From: Candidatus Omnitrophota bacterium
Lineage (GTDB): Bacteria > Omnitrophota > Gorgyraeia > Ghiorseimicrobiales > Ghiorseimicrobiaceae
Assembly: GCA_030681595.1 (NCBI GenBank)
Contig: JAUXSB010000003.1
Coordinates: forward strand, 223,207-287,206
Direction of reading: 5' to 3'
DNA length: 64,000 nt
Of the stretch, positions 1,800-52,128 are shown piece by piece. The translations under genes were made by a program, and so were the position numbers. The notes below the pieces were generated by a model. That model was not told the DNA's origin, searched no databases, and was given only the letters and a program-made list of their open reading frames with translations. Each line of letters starts with the position of its first letter. The stretch's first letter is position 1.

Positions 1800-2893
1800 A
1801 CTGCCTCGCTTTTTTCTTTATTTTCGCTTTCCTGCAGGACCTTGATAAATTCTTCTATATTCCCGTTTAAAACATCTTCAAGCCTGTATACGGTAAAATT
1901 AATCCTGTGATCAGTAATACGCCTATCCGGAAAATTATAAGTACGTATCTTTTCGGCCCGATCGCCTGTGCCAACCTGCGACCGGCGCTCGGAAGTCATC
2001 TTATTAAATTCTTCCTGTTTTATTTTATCTAAAAGCCGCGCCCTTAAAACACGCATTGCCTTATGTTTATTTTTTAACTGCGAACGCTCATCTTGACAAG
2101 TGACTATCACTCCGCTGGGCAGATGAGTAATTCGCACTGCCGAATCAGTTGTATTGACGCTCTGTCCACCTGCGCCCTTGGAACGATAAACATCAATTTT
2201 TAAATCCTGGGGATTAATAACTAAATCCACCTCTTCCGGCTCAACTAATACGGCAACGGTCACTGTGGAGGTATGAATCCTGCCGGAAGCCTCGGTTACC
2301 GGAACACGCTGGACGCGGTGCACGCCGCTTTCATATTTTAAATTTTTATAGGTGGCCATACCGGAAATGCTAAAGATTATTTCTTTAAATCCTCCGGCAT
2401 CGGTGGGATGGCTAGCCATTACTTCATATTTATAGCCTTTGGCGTCGGCGTATTTCGTATACATCCGGTATAAATTACCGACGAAAAGGCTTGCCTCCTG
2501 GCCGCCCGTGCCGGCGCGGATTTCCATAATAACTTCTTCATGCTTATCCGCGCCTTCTCCGGAAATTAAAGATTTAATCTCTGCGCTTAAAACCGGTATC
2601 TCTTCTCTTAGTTTAGCTATCTCGCTTTTGGCTAAGTCCAAAAAGCTTTCATCGTGCTGCTCAGAAAGAAGGCGCTCCAAACCCTTTAATTCCTCATCCT
2701 TGCTATTAAGAAGCTTGGCCCTCTCAACAATCCTGGAGAGCTTAGAAAGTTCCTTGGCGTAAGCCTGATACTTATTTTTATCGGCAAGGGTTTCCTGCTT
2801 CACCAAAAGCTCTTCCAGCTCTTTATAACGCGACTCTATTTTTTGTAGCTTTTTAAACATTTTCGATGACGACACAAGTTGCAGAGACTCCAA
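1796..2893 (-). CDS. prfA: Peptide chain release factor 1.
   Basis: 365-aa protein with the GGQ motif (RSKGAGGQSVNTTDSAVRITHLP) and RF-1 family sequence. Confidence 0.95.
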   Translation of the reverse strand: MESLQLVSSSKMFKKLQKIESRYKELEELLVKQETLADKNKYQAYAKELSKLSRIVERAKLLNSKDEELKGLERLLSEQHDESFLDLAKSEIAKLREEIPVLSAEIKSLISGEGADKHEEVIMEIRAGTGGQEASLFVGNLYRMYTKYADAKGYKYEVMASHPTDAGGFKEIIFSISGMATYKNLKYESGVHRVQRVPVTEASGRIHTSTVTVAVLVEPEEVDLVINPQDLKIDVYRSKGAGGQSVNTTDSAVRITHLPSGVIVTCQDERSQLKNKHKAMRVLRARLLDKIKQEEFNKMTSERRSQVGTGDRAEKIRTYNFPDRRITDHRINFTVYRLEDVLNGNIEEFIKVLQESENKEKSEAV

Positions 2894-3014
2894 AAGAGAC
2901 GTAACTTGTATGTCGGAATTTAACCCAGCACTTATTTTTACTAAAAATAAGTGCTGAATAAGTTCGGGCAGATAACTTATGTCGCCTTACAAGTTCCATA
3001 AGTTAAACCCTCCC
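2894..3014 (-). promoter_or_regulatory. L1 leader-family element upstream of prfA (box, hairpin 1, GGTTAAATTCC, hairpin 2).
   Basis: Perfect hairpin CAGCACTTATTTTTA/CTAAAAATAAGTGCTG at ~2926-2956. The box CTTATGTCGCCTTACAAGTTCCATAAGTT at ~2975-3005 is homologous to 51447-51482. Confidence 0.5.
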
Positions 3015-3212
3015 TTATTTCTTATATTTCTTCATAAATTTATCGACTCTTCCTGCCGAATCCACAAACTTCTGCTTGCCCGTAAAAAACGGATGGCATT
3101 TAGAGCAAATTTCTACACGGACATTCTGTTTAGTTGAACGAGTATGGATTATCTCCCCGCAAGCACAAATAATCGAAGCCTCCTGATAATTTGGATGAAT
3201 TTTATCTTTCAT
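3015..3212 (-). CDS. rpmE: 50S ribosomal protein L31.
   Basis: Translates as [26 protein letters not shown]...CHPFFTG. The AAGGAGAG RBS sits upstream of the internal ATG. The ORF-track start at 3239 is a GTG extension reaching into the leader. Confidence 0.9.
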
Positions 3213-3407
3213 TTTATTTTCTCTCCTTAATGACGACACGATTTACGGAATGTTAATGAGATAAATCGTATGCCGGAATTAATCCCGCTGAGTGTGCCAA
3301 AATTGTAGACCCTCTGGAATTTCTTTGAAATTCCGAGGACTTAGTCCCGGAAATTCTTCGAATTTCTCGGGGATAGAATTTTGGCACACTCAGCGGAATA
3401 TCCTCAC
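3213..3407 (-). promoter_or_regulatory. L1 leader-family element upstream of rpmE, expanded by nested hairpins.
   Basis: A 20-bp inverted repeat CCGCTGAGTGTGCCAAAATT ... AATTTTGGCACACTCAGCGG (~3286-3400) encloses three internal hairpins. GGGATTAATTCC, a second hairpin and TCATTAAGGAGAG are shared with the rho leader. Confidence 0.5.
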
Positions 3408-4655
3408 TTATTGGTTCATGCTCGCCAAGAACTCTTTATTGTTTTTAGTTTTAGACATCCTGTCAATAAGAAGCTCCATTGCTTCCGCCGAATTCAAATC
3501 ATTCAGCACCTTCCTTAATATCCATATTTTCTGCAAATCATCTCCTTTTATCAACAGCTCCTCTCTTCTTGTATTTGAACGCTTAATATCAATAGCGGGA
3601 TAAATCCTGCGCTGGAATAAATTCCTGTCTAACTGCAGTTCCATGTTGCCGGTCCCTTTAAATTCTTCAAAAATAACTTCATCCATGCGGCTGCCAGTAT
3701 CAACCAAAGCGGTCGCGATAATAGTAAGGCTGCCTCCTTCCTCAACAGCCCGGGCGGCGCCAAAGAAACGCTTAGGTTTATGTAAAGCATTAGAATCTAC
3801 CCCGCCGGATAAAATTTTCCCCGAATGCGGCACTACTGTATTATATGCCCGGGCAAGGCGGGTAATACTGTCCAGTAAAATCACCACATCTTTACCATGT
3901 TCAACAAGCCTCTTTGATTTTTCAAGGACAATCTCGGCAACTTGAACATGGCGCTCTGCCGGCTCATCAAATGTAGAAGAGATAACTTCCCCTTTAACAC
4001 TCCTCTGCATATCGGTAACCTCTTCCGGCCTTTCATCAATAAGCAAAACTATCAAAACTACATCCTGATGATTTTGGGTAATGGAATTGGCAATTTTTTG
4101 TAAAAGCACGGTTTTACCGCTATAGGGTTGTGCCACAATTAAAGCACGCTGCCCCTTGCCTAAGGGAGTAAGCAAATCCATTATACGGGTAGATATCTCT
4201 TCGGGATTAGCCTCAAGAAGAAAACGCTCATGCGGATAAATAGGCGTTAAGTTGTCAAACAATATTTTATCTTTTGTGCTCTCCGGGTTTTCAAAATCAA
4301 CCGCTTCAACTTTTAAAAGCGCGAAATATTTTTCCCCCTCTTTGGGCGGGCGGATCTGCCCGCTTACGGTATCGCCGGTCTTTAAGTCAAATTTTCTTAT
4401 CTGGGATGGCGAAATATAAATATCATCCGGGCAAGGCAGGTAATTATAATTCGGGCTCCTTAAGAATCCAAAACCATCTGGAAGGATTTCCAAAACCCCC
4501 TCCCCGAACATCAGCCCTTCTTTTTCTGCCTGCGCCTGTAAAATTTTGAAAATCAAATCCTGTTTTTTTAAGCCGCTGACGCCGTTAACATTTAAATCCT
4601 TTGCTATTTTGCTCAATTCGGTAATCTTTTTTTCTTTTAAGTTTATGATATCCAT
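3408..4655 (-). CDS. rho: Transcription termination factor Rho.
   Basis: 415-aa protein with an N-terminal RNA-binding domain, a Walker A motif (QPYSGKT) and a RecA-like ATPase core. Confidence 0.95.
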
Positions 4656-4767
4656 CTTTTACCCTCTCCTTAATGAACACATAAGTTACAGAATGAAATG
4701 ATGTAACTTATAAGTGTGAATTAATCCCGCCGAGTGTGTCAAAATTGTAGAATAGAATTTTGACACA
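4656..4767 (-). promoter_or_regulatory. L1 leader-family element upstream of rho, with a candidate -10 TATAAT.
   Basis: In sense orientation: cgTATAATgtgtcaaaattctattctacaattttgacacactcggcGGGATTAATTCac-[hairpin acttataagttaca...tgtaacttatgtgt]-TCATTAAGGAGAGggtaaaagATG. Confidence 0.5.
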
Positions 4768-5382
4768 TTATACGAGGCGGGACAACGACTCCCATACTTT
4801 TTTTACCTCTTTTTCGGTATCCGCCAATGTCTTATTATTATCTATCACGTAATCCGCTATTTTGATTTTTTGCGATAGCGGCAGCTGAAATTTTATACGC
4901 CTTAAAATATCAGCCTTTTTTAAACCAAATTTATCGCCGAGGCGCAAAATCTGTGTGCGCCTATCGGCTTTTACTACTATTAATTTATCCATTGCTTTAT
5001 GCAGGCAAGTTTCAACAAGTAAAGGAGCGTCTAAAATAATTATTTTCCCCGGGATATTTTTTTGCGCACGCCTGACTTCGCTTTTTATTCTTTTTATTAT
5101 TGGCGGGTGAATTATTTTCTGATAATCCGATAATTTTTTTGTATCATTAAATACAATATCTGCGATCTTTTTACGGCTTATTGATTTATCCTTATTTAAT
5201 ACCTGCCGGCCAAATCTTAAAATTATTTTCCTGTATATTCCGCTTTTTCGCGACATGAGTAAACTATGCGCTATGTTGTCTGCGTCAATAATTTTTGCCC
5301 CTAATTTCCTAAAAATACCCGCTACCGTGGTCTTTCCTGTGCCAAACCCGCCAGTAAGGCCGATAATAAGCGCCTTGCGCAT
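4768..5382 (-). CDS. coaE: Dephospho-CoA kinase.
   Basis: 204-aa protein with a GLTGGFGTGKTT P-loop at the N-terminus. It lies immediately downstream of polA. Confidence 0.85.
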   Translation of the reverse strand: MRKALIIGLTGGFGTGKTTVAGIFRKLGAKIIDADNIAHSLLMSRKSGIYRKIILRFGRQVLNKDKSISRKKIADIVFNDTKKLSDYQKIIHPPIIKRIKSEVRRAQKNIPGKIIILDAPLLVETCLHKAMDKLIVVKADRRTQILRLGDKFGLKKADILRRIKFQLPLSQKIKIADYVIDNNKTLADTEKEVKKVWESLSRLV

Positions 5383-50138: not shown

Positions 50139-51281
50139 CTAAGCCTTGCGCGCAAACATTTCTTCCGCGGCTTTTACGCCTGCACCCAGCTCAAACTTAT
50201 GCCCCATCTGTTTTAAAACCTTTTCTAAACAGGATATCCCGATAATAACATCAAACTCTTCAATATAGCCCATATGGGCGACTCTTATGACCCTGCCCCT
50301 TAACTCAGCTTGCCCTCCGGCAATAGTTACACCATAGGTATCGCGCATTGTCTTAACTAATTTTTCTCCGTCTATCCCAGCAGGCACTTTTACCGCGGTA
50401 ACTACATCACTAGAAGCGCTTGGCGCGAACAACTCAAGGCCAAGAGCCTTCACTGCCGCGCGTGTGGCATCCGCCATCTTTTTATGCCTTAAGAAAATTT
50501 TCTCTAGCCCGTCTTCTTTAACCATCTTAAGCGCTTCGCTTAAAGCAACAATCAGGGTAATCGCCGGGGTAAATGGCGTATCGGTTTGAGCCCATGCTTT
50601 CTTAGCCGCTTTTAAACTAAAATAATATTTAGGGCACTTCGAGCTTTCGCTTAATTTTTCGGCCTTGGGGCTTAGAGAGATAAAACCCAAGCCAGGCGGA
50701 AGCATTAAACCTTTCTGCGAGCCAGAAACCACAATATCGCAAAACCAAGCATCAGTCTTTAAATCGATCGCGCCCAACCCGCTGATAGCATCTACCACCA
50801 ATACCGCCTCTGTATCTTTTACCACTTTGCCGATTGCTTCAATATCATTGACTACGCCTGTAGAAGTCTCGCATAAAGTAGTAAATACAGCTTTAATTTT
50901 TGGGTTTGCCTTTAGCCTTTTTTGTATTTCCGAAGGGTCAACAGCCTTTCCCCATTCCACATCAATAACTTCGGCGTTAATACAATAACTCTTACAGATC
51001 TCGGTCCACCGCTCTCCGAATTTACCGCCCTGGATAACTAAAACTGTATCGCCGGGCGAAAGTAAATTTACTACTGCTGCCTCCATAGCCCCTGTCCCGG
51101 ACGAGGCAAGGGTATAGACATCGTTTTTTGTTTGAAACACATACTTTAATCCTTCAGTAGCTTCTTTTAGGATTACCTGAAACTGCGGCGTCCTATGATG
51201 GACTATCGGACGAGCCATCGCAAGGCAAACTTCTGGCGGAAGCGGCGTTGGGCCGGGAGTCAATAGATAATTCTTACGCAT
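50139..51281 (-). CDS. Class V aminotransferase (archaeal-type phosphoserine / serine-pyruvate aminotransferase).
   Basis: 380-aa class V PLP fold protein (SGSQKGLMLPPGLG), adjacent to serA. Confidence 0.8.
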   Translation of the reverse strand: MRKNYLLTPGPTPLPPEVCLAMARPIVHHRTPQFQVILKEATEGLKYVFQTKNDVYTLASSGTGAMEAAVVNLLSPGDTVLVIQGGKFGERWTEICKSYCINAEVIDVEWGKAVDPSEIQKRLKANPKIKAVFTTLCETSTGVVNDIEAIGKVVKDTEAVLVVDAISGLGAIDLKTDAWFCDIVVSGSQKGLMLPPGLGFISLSPKAEKLSESSKCPKYYFSLKAAKKAWAQTDTPFTPAITLIVALSEALKMVKEDGLEKIFLRHKKMADATRAAVKALGLELFAPSASSDVVTAVKVPAGIDGEKLVKTMRDTYGVTIAGGQAELRGRVIRVAHMGYIEEFDVIIGISCLEKVLKQMGHKFELGAGVKAAEEMFARKA

Positions 51282-51489
51282 AGAGCCTCCTCAAATGAAC
51301 AGACAATTTATGGAACACGGAGTGCGAGATAAATTGTAGGACGAAGTCCGTCTGTGAATTTGGCCCAGCACTAATTTATTCAAATACCAACTAAAATTTC
51401 TCAATCCAGCCAGCTCGGAAAATTAGTGCTGGGTAAATTCGGCCATACAACTTATGTCGCTCTACAAGCTCCCTAAGTTGTGGCTTTAC
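51282..51489 (-). promoter_or_regulatory. L1 leader-family element upstream of the class V aminotransferase.
   Basis: The same box (ACTTATGTCGCTCTACAAGCTCCCTAAGTT), hairpin CCCAGCACTAATT...AATTAGTGCTGGG, GGCCAAATTCAC, a second hairpin (ACAGAC...GTCTGT) and the TCATTTGAGGAGG RBS. Confidence 0.5.
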
Positions 51490-52128
51490 TTATTTCGTTG
51501 TAACAATCACTTCATCAATTATGCCGTATTTTTTCGCCTCTTCAGACGACATAAAATAATCGCGGTCAGAGTCTTTTTTTACTTTCTCGACAGATTGTCC
51601 TGTATGTTTGGCTAAAACCTGCTCTATCTTTTCTCTTAGGCGCAATATTTCATTTGCCTGGATAGAAATATCTGCCGCCGCACCCTGCACGCCTCCCCAA
51701 GGCTGATGTATCATAATCCGCGAATTAGGAAGCGCAAAACGTTTACCCTTTGTGCCGGCAGATAACAAAACCGCGCCCATACTTGCGGCCTGCCCCACAC
51801 AATATGTGCATACAACAGGTTTTACAAACTGTATAGTATCATAAATTGCAAGCCCTGCGGTGACAGAACCGCCCGGAGAATTAATGTAAACATTAATTTC
51901 CTTGTTTACATCCTCCATTTGCAGAAAAAGCATCTGGGCGATAACCAAATTTGCTACATTGTCATCTATGGGAGTGCCGATAAAAATAATCCGGTCCTTA
52001 AGCAAGCGGGAGTAGATATCATATGCCCGCTCAAACCCCCTGCTTGTCTGCTCTATAACCATGGGAACCAAAACCTGGCCAACTTCTGGCTCGCGCCTTT
52101 GAGAACTTGTATACATACTTACCCCCAT
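51490..52128 (-). CDS. clpP: ATP-dependent Clp protease proteolytic subunit.
   Basis: 212-aa protein with the ClpP Ser-His-Asp catalytic triad context (GQAASMGA). Confidence 0.95.

Follow-up and report, generated by a model that had tools for sequence, protein, structure and literature searches.

L1, a hairpin-rich intergenic repeat family of Omnitrophota that probably spreads as a non-autonomous mobile element

Repetitive extragenic palindromes (REP) and their BIME and REPIN arrangements, which in Proteobacteria are mobilised by RAYT, a Y1 HUH transposase, are short, multi-copy, extragenic imperfect palindromes in transcribed spacers between co-directional genes. They are found singly or as inverted pairs forming a larger palindrome, amplify within genomes and are not gene-specific; REP families are usually restricted to a species or genus. 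Miniature inverted-repeat transposable elements (MITEs) that lie next to genes, such as Correia/NEMIS in Neisseria, ERIC/IRU in Enterobacteriaceae and Yersinia, and RUP/BOX in Streptococcus, are non-coding palindromic sequences of ca. 100-200 bp, insertion-polymorphic between relatives and co-transcribed with their flanking genes; Correia elements duplicate TA. Derivatives of IS200/IS605 (palindrome-associated transposable elements, PATEs) carry subterminal hairpins at their ends, and an internal guide located by the hairpin foot specifies their cleavage and target sites through base pairing. Cis-regulatory leaders (ribosomal-protein leaders, riboswitches, attenuators) lie directly upstream of the Shine-Dalgarno sequence, with conserved unpaired boxes flanking covarying stems. 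Here we describe L1, a family of structured spacer elements from Omnitrophota, a group of uncultured bacteria that are for the most part ultra-small and have compact genomes. Four copies were found in a stretch of 64,000 nucleotides (hereafter the window) from a metagenome-assembled genome of Candidatus Omnitrophota bacterium, assembly GCA_030681595.1, contig JAUXSB010000003.1 (307 kb), positions 223,207 to 287,206.

In its short, extragenic, palindromic and non-coding nature, its many copies, its place in transcribed spacers, its insertion polymorphism, its amplification within genomes and its lack of gene specificity, L1 resembles REP and the gene-adjacent MITEs. Its full form has long terminal inverted repeats, and its inverted doublets and half, tandem and truncated forms correspond to the doublets and singlets by which REP and REPIN are defined. 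Unlike REP, L1 has no GTAG foot: the foot of its hairpin P2 is flanked by TTC/TCA and that of its hairpin P1 by (A)TCCC/GGGA(T). It is moreover a composite unit, made of two different hairpins and a helix that joins a box to the end of the element; it is anchored 5' of the Shine-Dalgarno sequence of the next gene, whereas REP lie loosely at gene 3' ends; and its boxes are conserved across deeply diverged genomes. From the gene-adjacent MITEs it differs by its unrelated sequence, by the predominance of half elements without terminal inverted repeats, by the lack of a demonstrable target-site duplication, and by ends that merge on one side with the stop codon and on the other with the bases directly preceding the Shine-Dalgarno sequence.

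Rfam 15 gave no match at gathering thresholds across the window, and its E-value mode gave only chance-level matches when applied to 2800-4850. The searchable literature on intergenic repeats and RNA motifs of Omnitrophota (Omnitrophica), or on the box sequence, held nothing relevant, and a paper on Omnitrophota genomics mentions no more than an Rfam run; neither the repeats nor the 5' leaders of this group appear to have been described in print. The family, its composite architecture, its anchoring to stop codon and Shine-Dalgarno sequence and its spread across Omnitrophota thus appear to be undescribed; the kind of element, a REP- or MITE-like intergenic repeat, is already known. We consider it probable (roughly 0.72) that L1 is a non-autonomous, MITE- or REPIN-like mobile repeat family, hairpin-rich, ca. 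95-215 nt long and widespread in Omnitrophota. L1 is read as a spreading cassette because its presence and absence differ in both directions between relatives, near-identical copies occur within genomes, and tandem and truncated copies are found.

Distribution and turnover of L1 copies

One genome per species was scanned for the exact pattern GGGWTWAATTC-N25-55-TCATTAAGGAG, for which about 10 matches were expected by chance (our own estimate from the information content of the pattern). This core, composed of GGGATTAATTC, P2, TCATT and AAGGAG, was found at no fewer than 120 loci, numbered with the prefix L, in at least about 62 species-level assemblies, nearly all labelled Omnitrophota. A few of the matches listed bear other labels (Planctomycetia "binchicken" bins, Auribacterota, NPL-UPA2, Nitrospirota and one Flavobacteriaceae contig), and at least two matches, in Acetobacterium and Clostridia, look like chance. 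With a covariance model, about 80 more copies, of divergent sequence, were detected in these loci (0.84 Mb in all), to reach a total of about 200 copies; the gain of about one per 10 kb is similar to the 4 per 64 kb of the window. The element is non-coding. All six reading frames are closed in 115 of 199 model matches and, in the checked cases with an open frame, for instance the prfA copy, this frame is that of the downstream open reading frame (ORF) continuing through the element.

Turnover of copies was assessed against a close relative of ca. 88% nucleotide identity, ENA contig-100_13 (218 kb; loci L123 and L126), which was recovered through its CoaE and its aminotransferase (80% and 93% identical, respectively). 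Gene order is the same as in the window, and about 34 kb aligned in BLAST segments of 78.6-92.8% identity, ca. 87% when weighted by length. Of the six element sites present in either genome none is common to both, four being filled only in the window and two only in the relative (Table 1). At the coaE-rho junction the empty allele reads GGGGCAAAA-TAAGGAGAGAGG...ATG (...GGGGCAAAATAAGGAGAGAGG...), with the coaE stop codon overlapping the rho Shine-Dalgarno sequence, and the filled allele reads ...GGGAGTCGTTG[TCCCGCC...GTGTTCAT]TAAGGAGAGGG...ATG, with the element ending in TCAT just 5' of the Shine-Dalgarno sequence. Since TAAGGAGAG is already present in the empty site, the Shine-Dalgarno sequence there belongs to the host and predates the element; the cdhC junction (empty, TAAGAGGAGTAAGTT; filled, TTATTGAAGGAGTAAAATT) and the rho-rpmE junction are consistent with this origin. 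The coaE gene product also differs, ending in WGK* in the relative and in WESLSRLV* in the window, where 4768-4790 reads into the element and the stop codon lies inside P1.

A patchy presence per junction was likewise observed in five more distant genomes that keep the order coaE-rho-rpmE-prfA-prmC-murA: the element is missing before rho in L118 and before rpmE in L059 and L062, and the prfA junction is filled in the window alone. In an all-against-all BLAST of the listed loci, the only close pairs were the window with L123-L126 and a weaker one, L016 with L040. Within assemblies, 31 of 515 pairs of P2 sequences (6%) were at least 90% identical, versus 1 of 2335 pairs (0.04%) between assemblies, a ca. 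150-fold difference. Combined, these comparisons show that gain and loss of copies is rapid between close relatives and that copies amplify within genomes.

Among the matches listed, an ORF start comes next in 144 of 182 A-type right ends, at a distance of 11-16 nt past TCATT in 121 of these, and the upstream gene is co-directional in 106 of 137 cases; the copies occupy the spacer between the stop codon and the ribosome-binding site of the next gene. The preliminary description had set beforehand, as the mark of generic REP-like repeats, a location mostly between convergent genes or inside ORFs. No copy was found in either place, all being tightly tied to gene 5' ends, and they are REP/MITE-like repeats nonetheless. 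Adjacent matches in (-,+) orientation were considered as bidirectional promoters and this was rejected, as nearly all of them are the inverted left arm and the right arm of one element between co-directional genes; one true back-to-back pair was found (L020).

Downstream genes are diverse: the 151 downstream proteins among the matches listed fall into 124 clusters, that is, more than 120 unrelated gene families. Recurrent ones are rpmE (four times), rpsM, rpoA, rpsA, ribH and a NifU-like gene (three times each) and rho, groEL, rpsP and pfkA (twice each), besides about 100 singletons. Three copies adjoin tRNA genes, namely tRNA-Ser (L036 3734-3899 and L054 3542-3705) and tRNA-Gln (L053 556-705). 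In L036 and L054 the "GGAG" that follows the element corresponds to the first four bases of tRNA-Ser, and in all three loci the right end of L1 meets the 5' end of the mature tRNA. Locus L054 lies on a 762-kb contig labelled Flavobacteriaceae and has a Bacteroidetes-type TAnnTTTG motif upstream of the element, from which we suspect either a wrongly labelled bin or transfer beyond Omnitrophota.

As first noticed, rho, rpmE and prfA, which follow three of the four copies in the window, are genes of translation or termination, and a shared autoregulatory or attenuation leader had been proposed for this reason. Such a gene-specific leader, responding to L31, Rho or RF1 by feedback, would also account for the element found before rpmE in three other genomes. 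It is nonetheless extremely improbable, for among the matches listed L1 stands before genes of more than 120 unrelated families and before tRNA genes, and it is absent from the rho, rpmE and prfA junctions of the relative, where coaE and rho are 2 nt apart, as it is from several of these junctions in the more distant genomes. L1 shares with known cis-regulatory leaders the place directly before the Shine-Dalgarno sequence and the conserved unpaired boxes beside covarying stems. Unlike them, it is not conserved at orthologous sites, shows no tie to gene function, occurs also inverted, has no Rfam match at or below gathering thresholds, and forms no evident alternative terminator/antiterminator or sequestering structure. 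A terminator scan of 2800-4850 found one site, inside rho, versus 1.7 expected, and no hairpin is followed by a U-tract.

Architecture and covariation of the element

Most copies are half elements, devoid of terminal inverted repeats, which read 5' to 3' (A)TCCC, a variable P1, GGGA, the box TTAATTC, P2 with a 2-nt bulge in its 5' arm, and TCAT(T). The full form consists of a half form plus an inverted P2 module at the left, the closing helix of which takes in the upstream stop codon. By our own count, full elements represent roughly 20 of about 180 copies among the matches listed, and their ends are inverted P2 modules of ca. 60 nt. P1 varies in length from 16 to 126 nt and is unrelated in sequence between subfamilies, and the box sequences are kept across genomes whose PolA proteins are only ca. 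50% identical. Tandem, truncated and nested copies are common among the matches listed. One subfamily (L011, L015, L038, L048, L080, L092 and L120; assemblies CAZDNS01 and JAGVOB01) carries a conserved extension, AAGGAG-ATG-(2-3 codons)-TAA-CAGAT, which precedes the next P1 or the real start codon, as in GGAGATGATACTATAAATGGCA of L038, and amounts to a mini-ORF of 3-4 codons with its own Shine-Dalgarno sequence.

The four window regions from which this work started (2894-3014, 3213-3407, 4656-4767 and 51282-51489) do share, on the minus (sense) strand, a modular architecture of two or three hairpins. A covariance model trained solely on copies from other genomes, when run on the window, recovered only these four, at 4652-4742 (75.5 bits), 3209-3300 (74.4 bits), 2850-2940 (35.6 bits) and 51273-51380 (33.6 bits), the next match scoring 16 bits. 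Their minimum-free-energy folds had z values of -4.0 to -8.7 relative to mononucleotide shuffles. On the sense strand each copy is ordered as variable P1, conserved box, P2 (with the 2-nt bulge on its 5' arm), TCAT(T), Shine-Dalgarno sequence and start codon.

Several details of the preliminary description were modified by this analysis. Its first hairpin is present and is longer than described, because GGG(A) pairs with an upstream (T)CCC; the closing stem of P1 is (T)CCC...GGG(A) in all copies except that of prfA, where it is CAGCAC/GTGCTG. The GGG(A/T) junction is conserved as part of a longer box, which reads GGGATTAATTC in the rho and rpmE copies, GGGTTAAATTC in the prfA copy and GGGCCAAATTC in the aminotransferase copy. 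The 3' end, given as TCAT(T)AGGAG, reads TCATTAAGGAG in the rho and rpmE copies and TCATTTGAGGAGG in the aminotransferase copy, and that of the prfA copy, TCATCGAAAATG, has no Shine-Dalgarno sequence. What had been taken for a separate optional box corresponds to a second, inverted P2 module, matched by the model on the plus strand at 2964-3012 (23.3 bits) and 51434-51492 (22.9 bits). In the prfA and aminotransferase copies, the order is therefore inverted P2, P1 and P2, with the left arm beginning at the upstream stop codon, so that full elements are large imperfect palindromes. Of the three extra hairpins reported to be nested in hairpin 1 of the rpmE copy, two were found, in the apex of P1.

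A sequence-only MAFFT alignment of 118 copies led RNAalifold to predict P2 and a helix, P2a, formed between the two boxes, with compensatory changes in 12 of 17 pairs (one pair, for example, being AU in 50 copies, CG in 33 and GC in 28). In a model-based alignment of 139 copies, 97.9% of the cells were paired, versus 74.3% in shuffles and 27-46% with slid partners, and changes on both sides were seen in 17 of 17 pairs; this alignment was fitted to the model and is hence biased toward structure, the MAFFT result serving as the independent check. Both the P2 and the P2a helices are thus supported. In P2a, the partner of the box is the 3' end of the element together with the first bases of the flank, and the covarying variants are TTAAT/ATTAA, TAAGT/ACTTA, TAAAT/ATTTA, CAAAT/ATTTG and TCAAT/ATTGA (pair 21/197: UA 94, AU 20, CG 6; pair 25/193: AU 125, GC 11). 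Since the two boxes pair with covariation, they are two strands of one helix rather than separate protein-binding or promoter boxes.

Structural features were compared between strands. About 98% of the stem pairs are Watson-Crick and ca. 2% are G-U, and G-U counts in sense versus antisense were 66 versus 61 for P2 and 59 versus 111 for P1, with no enrichment on the sense strand; the mean folding energy is 1.4 kcal/mol lower, and the fold hence more stable, on the antisense than on the sense strand. The notion of the sense RNA as a selected structure was dropped, because the bias of folding energy and G-U pairs toward the sense strand that it predicts is absent, the antisense strand being slightly favoured. 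The left arm keeps the asymmetry of the module (bulge side and pyrimidine-rich loop side) in its own inverted orientation, and the mRNA would hence display complementary loops and bulge there.

The preliminary description had also offered a promoter cassette that has spread. The spreading part agrees with the data presented here; nothing in them points to promoter activity, no conserved -35/-10 geometry being found and promoter-like matches staying within chance. That the GGGATTAATTC region or hairpin 1 supplies a promoter to each downstream gene could be argued from the constant orientation of the copies toward a gene or tRNA start, from AT-rich -10-like hexamers (GATAAT, TACAAT) in many P1 hairpins and from one 9-of-12 promoter-like match inside the rpmE copy. 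A scan of 2800-4850 for sigma-70 promoters, however, found 4 sites versus 4.7 expected by chance. Upstream of GGG only positions -1, -2 and -7 are informative, with no -35/-10 pair at a fixed distance, and P1 varies too widely in length and sequence, as described above; the box, in turn, covaries with the 3' end of the element, which would be needless for a -10 element. The TATAAT noticed in the rho copy exists, but it overlaps the coaE stop codon (TAA, 4770-4768) and was unflagged by the promoter scan. Inspection by eye located sigma-70-like sequences upstream of P1 in L016, L022 and L043, which have a divergent upstream gene and a long spacer, and a TAnnTTTG-type one in L054, which would place the element in the transcribed leader. 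A portable promoter is very unlikely on these grounds.

Persistence in operons and the origin of the family

The fold offers a possible explanation for the tolerance of L1 at its preferred site. As every segment (P2', P1, and P2 with P2a) is closed on itself, the insert would be folded away in the mRNA, keeping the stop codon and the host Shine-Dalgarno sequence spatially close and leaving the latter free of pairing directly behind a stable helix. The downstream gene would thereby still be translated and the insertion tolerated. A hairpin-closed fold with an exposed Shine-Dalgarno sequence would explain why copies persist at this spot in compact operons, insertions elsewhere being purged by selection. 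Should L1 influence how stable the mRNA is, how it is processed or how efficiently it is translated, which the example of REP, ERIC and Correia repeats makes plausible, such an influence would be secondary.

A number of observations weigh against a mobile repeat. Whether each event was a gain or a loss is something that we infer, and at several sites the filled and the empty allele are set apart by an entirely replaced spacer, not by clean insertion. No transposase or autonomous copy was found in 20 window ORFs (Pfam, 16.5-35.5 kb) or among the genes of the relative in the matching regions, all of which are housekeeping. Nor did a clear target-site duplication emerge from the filled and empty pairs, which spacer replacement partly blurs: the canonical full copies, TAA|GTGA...TCAT|TAA, are compatible with a TAA duplication (e.g. 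L119), and the flanks differ on the two sides in the window aminotransferase copy, L059 and L120. Half elements are without terminal inverted repeats. That the boxes are conserved down to ca. 50% PolA identity is unusual for a selfish repeat; a conserved host factor might recognise them, in which case L1 would have a host function. Finally, the downstream genes appear by eye to lean to housekeeping or highly expressed ones (ribosomal proteins, rpoA, groEL, rho), which could reflect selection for function rather than an insertion bias.

The last two points would be expected of an intercistronic RNA module selected by the host, either as an mRNA processing or stabilising signal or as a translation insulator or enhancer, and spread by recombination because it is useful. 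Such a module would also fit the near-constant distance from the end of the element to the ORF start, the recurrence of orthologues (rpmE four times; rpsM, rpoA and rpsA three times each) in a downstream set that also comprises mreB and glyA, the copies in pre-tRNA leaders, and the promoter-like sequences seen upstream of P1 at the three divergent-gene loci, where the element would lie within the 5' untranslated region. It is unlikely, if worth keeping in mind, since comparison with the close relative shows that no site, those of rho, rpmE and prfA included, requires the element. The absence of sense-strand G-U enrichment, the slightly more stable antisense fold and the complementary loops and bulge that the inverted left arm would present in mRNA speak against it too, as do the C-terminus of CoaE, changed by one insertion, and the prfA copy, which has no Shine-Dalgarno sequence.

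As to how a mobile L1 would move, PATEs provide a suggestive parallel. Like them, the half form has ends defined by hairpins on one strand and no terminal inverted repeats, and a box just 5' of a hairpin foot pairs and covaries with the sequence 3' of the hairpin, flank included (TTAAT/ATTAA, TCAAT/ATTGA, TAAGT/ACTTA, CAAAT/ATTTG). In contrast to PATEs, the pairing takes the form of an ordinary Watson-Crick helix, the two hairpins are mutually unrelated, no TnpA or TnpB is encoded among the genes scanned, there is no fixed tetranucleotide 5' of the left end, and the ends of the full form are inverted, as those of IS200/IS605 elements are not known to be. A single-strand system that recognises hairpins, of the HUH/Y1 type or similar, might thus move L1, the box (TTAAT, TCAAT or TAAGT) selecting the stop/Shine-Dalgarno target by pairing; we hold this proposal to be rather unlikely. 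In a single case, at the cdhC site, the unusual TCAAT box of the relative matches the G that starts the Shine-Dalgarno sequence (GAGGAG) of the empty site in the window. Were targeting guided in this way, the element would be programmed to land between genes where it is least harmful, with stop and start signals remaining adjacent in the folded mRNA. The covariation of box and flank hints at target recognition by base pairing, which would be of interest for transposon mechanisms.

If L1 is a mobile repeat, many of these genomes would have a mobile, structured insert at about one in ten to fifteen of their gene starts, set exactly between a stop codon and the ribosome-binding site that follows. 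Annotation would be affected, as copies can be mistaken for regulatory leaders and can extend or alter the ends of upstream ORFs, as in coaE, and short-read assemblies may break at them. The family would also be a ready marker for strain-level dynamics, and a natural test case for the tolerance of structured insertions in operons and for their effects on translation and mRNA stability.

Window copies, neighbouring genes and other spacer repeats

The window has a G+C content of 41.6% and, in an extreme strand bias, every one of its ca. 62 predicted genes lies on the minus strand; neither a tRNA gene nor another Rfam RNA was detected in it. Three copies occupy the coaE-rho, rho-rpmE and rpmE-prfA spacers, in the sense-strand order polA, coaE, rho, rpmE, prfA, prmC, murA, and the fourth lies between clpP and a gene initially labelled serC-like, whose product is instead a class V aminotransferase of the alanine-glyoxylate/serine-pyruvate family. 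An exact-protein look-up matched RpmE, the aminotransferase and CoaE, and left Rho unmatched. Features of the copies and the state of the junctions in the relative are collected in Table 1. In addition, the 5' arm of P1 in the rho copy extends over the final codons and the stop of coaE, the left arm of the prfA copy is closed by a helix, AATAAG/CTTATT, that takes in the rpmE stop codon (TAA, 3017-3015), and the aminotransferase copy has an extra side hairpin in P2 and a compensatory variant of P2a, CAAAU/AUUUG.

Table 1. Features of the four L1 copies of the window, and junctions compared with the close relative
Feature	Position	Strand	Description
rho copy, P1	4725..4782	-	outer stem TCCCGCC (4782-4776)/GGCGGGA (4731-4725)
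rho copy, P1 inner stem	4766-4756/4746-4736	-	GTGTCAAAATT/AATTTTGACAC
rho copy, box	4718..4728	-	GGGATTAATTC; GGGA closes P1; TTAAT pairs with ATTAA at 4674-4670 (P2a)
rho copy, P2	4677..4717	-	ACAC-TT-ATAAGTTACA ... TGTAACTTAT-GTGT; 2-nt bulge in 5' arm
rho copy, right end	4666..4676	-	TCAT(T) is the element terminus, followed by host Shine-Dalgarno sequence (T)AAGGAG; rho ATG 4655
rpmE copy, left part	3283..3410	-	left terminus TAAGTGAGGATATT contains rho stop TAA (3410-3408)
rpmE copy, long P1	arms ~3398-3377/3304-3283	-	apex carries two nested hairpins, 3372-3346 and 3340-3308
rpmE copy, right part	3223..3286	-	box GGGATTAATTC 3286-3276; P2 3275-3234; TCATTAAGGAG 3233-3223; rpmE ATG 3212
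prfA copy, left arm	2957..3019	-	inverted P2 module; plus-strand model match 2964-3012
prfA copy, P1	2956-2926	-	CAGCACTTATTTTT/AAAAATAAGTGCTG
prfA copy, right part	2866..2956	-	box GGGTTAAATTC 2926-2916; P2 2915-2870; TCAT 2869-2866; no Shine-Dalgarno sequence
aminotransferase copy, left arm	51433..51494	-	inverted P2 from clpP stop codon (AATAAGTAAAGCC...); plus-strand match 51434-51492
aminotransferase copy, remainder	51286..51432	-	P1 51432-51365; box GGGCCAAATTC 51366-51356; P2 51355-51299; TCATTTGAGGAGG 51298-51286; ATG 51281
coaE-rho junction			relative: 2-nt spacer, no element
rho-rpmE junction			relative: 60-nt spacer, no element
rpmE-prfA junction			relative: 34-nt spacer, no element
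clpP-aminotransferase junction			relative: different, low-complexity hairpin, no L1
cdhC, upstream			relative: half element (47.7 bits); window: 21-nt spacer
uppS, upstream			relative: full element (48.2 + 38.5 bits); window: short spacer

The start codon of prfA is the ATG at 2860 and not the TTG at 2893. No recognisable Shine-Dalgarno sequence precedes this gene in the window (TCATCGAAAATG, 2861-2869) or in the relative (aaagcgattATG, L123 12124-12157); most neighbouring genes have one.

Other repeats were observed in the spacers of the window. A second intergenic family of ca. 130 nt, on the minus strand at 14139-13960, 27254-27100 and 30291-30120, starts with GCTGAAATCTTTCGCCG..ACGGTTTACG..TTCATTTGACGGAATTCCCTTCGGTCAGTTCCGTC.. 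and looks structured, its copies being 68-93% identical. These lie upstream of metF (MTHFR), of an ORF of 133 amino acids and of a class I (Trp/Tyr) tRNA synthetase gene, and have no Rfam match; before metF, only the last ca. 65 nt of the spacer align between the close relative and the window. A third, small family, also on the minus strand (15882-15842, 18324-18268 and 55858-55797), consists of a GC-rich hairpin followed by TGTTGTCT(NN)CTGACAAGGAG right before start codons, for example that of fhs (formate-tetrahydrofolate ligase). Long low-complexity hairpins (ccagaaaccag.., ccaattgccaat.., tagcgtatagcg..) occupy spacers at 1004-933, 12944-12812, 36786-36706, 44363-44283, 52201-52129 and 57087-56990, and at 9844-10000 of L126. 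As the clpP-aminotransferase junction of the relative holds a hairpin of this kind where the window has L1, the spacers turn over between different kinds of hairpin filler.

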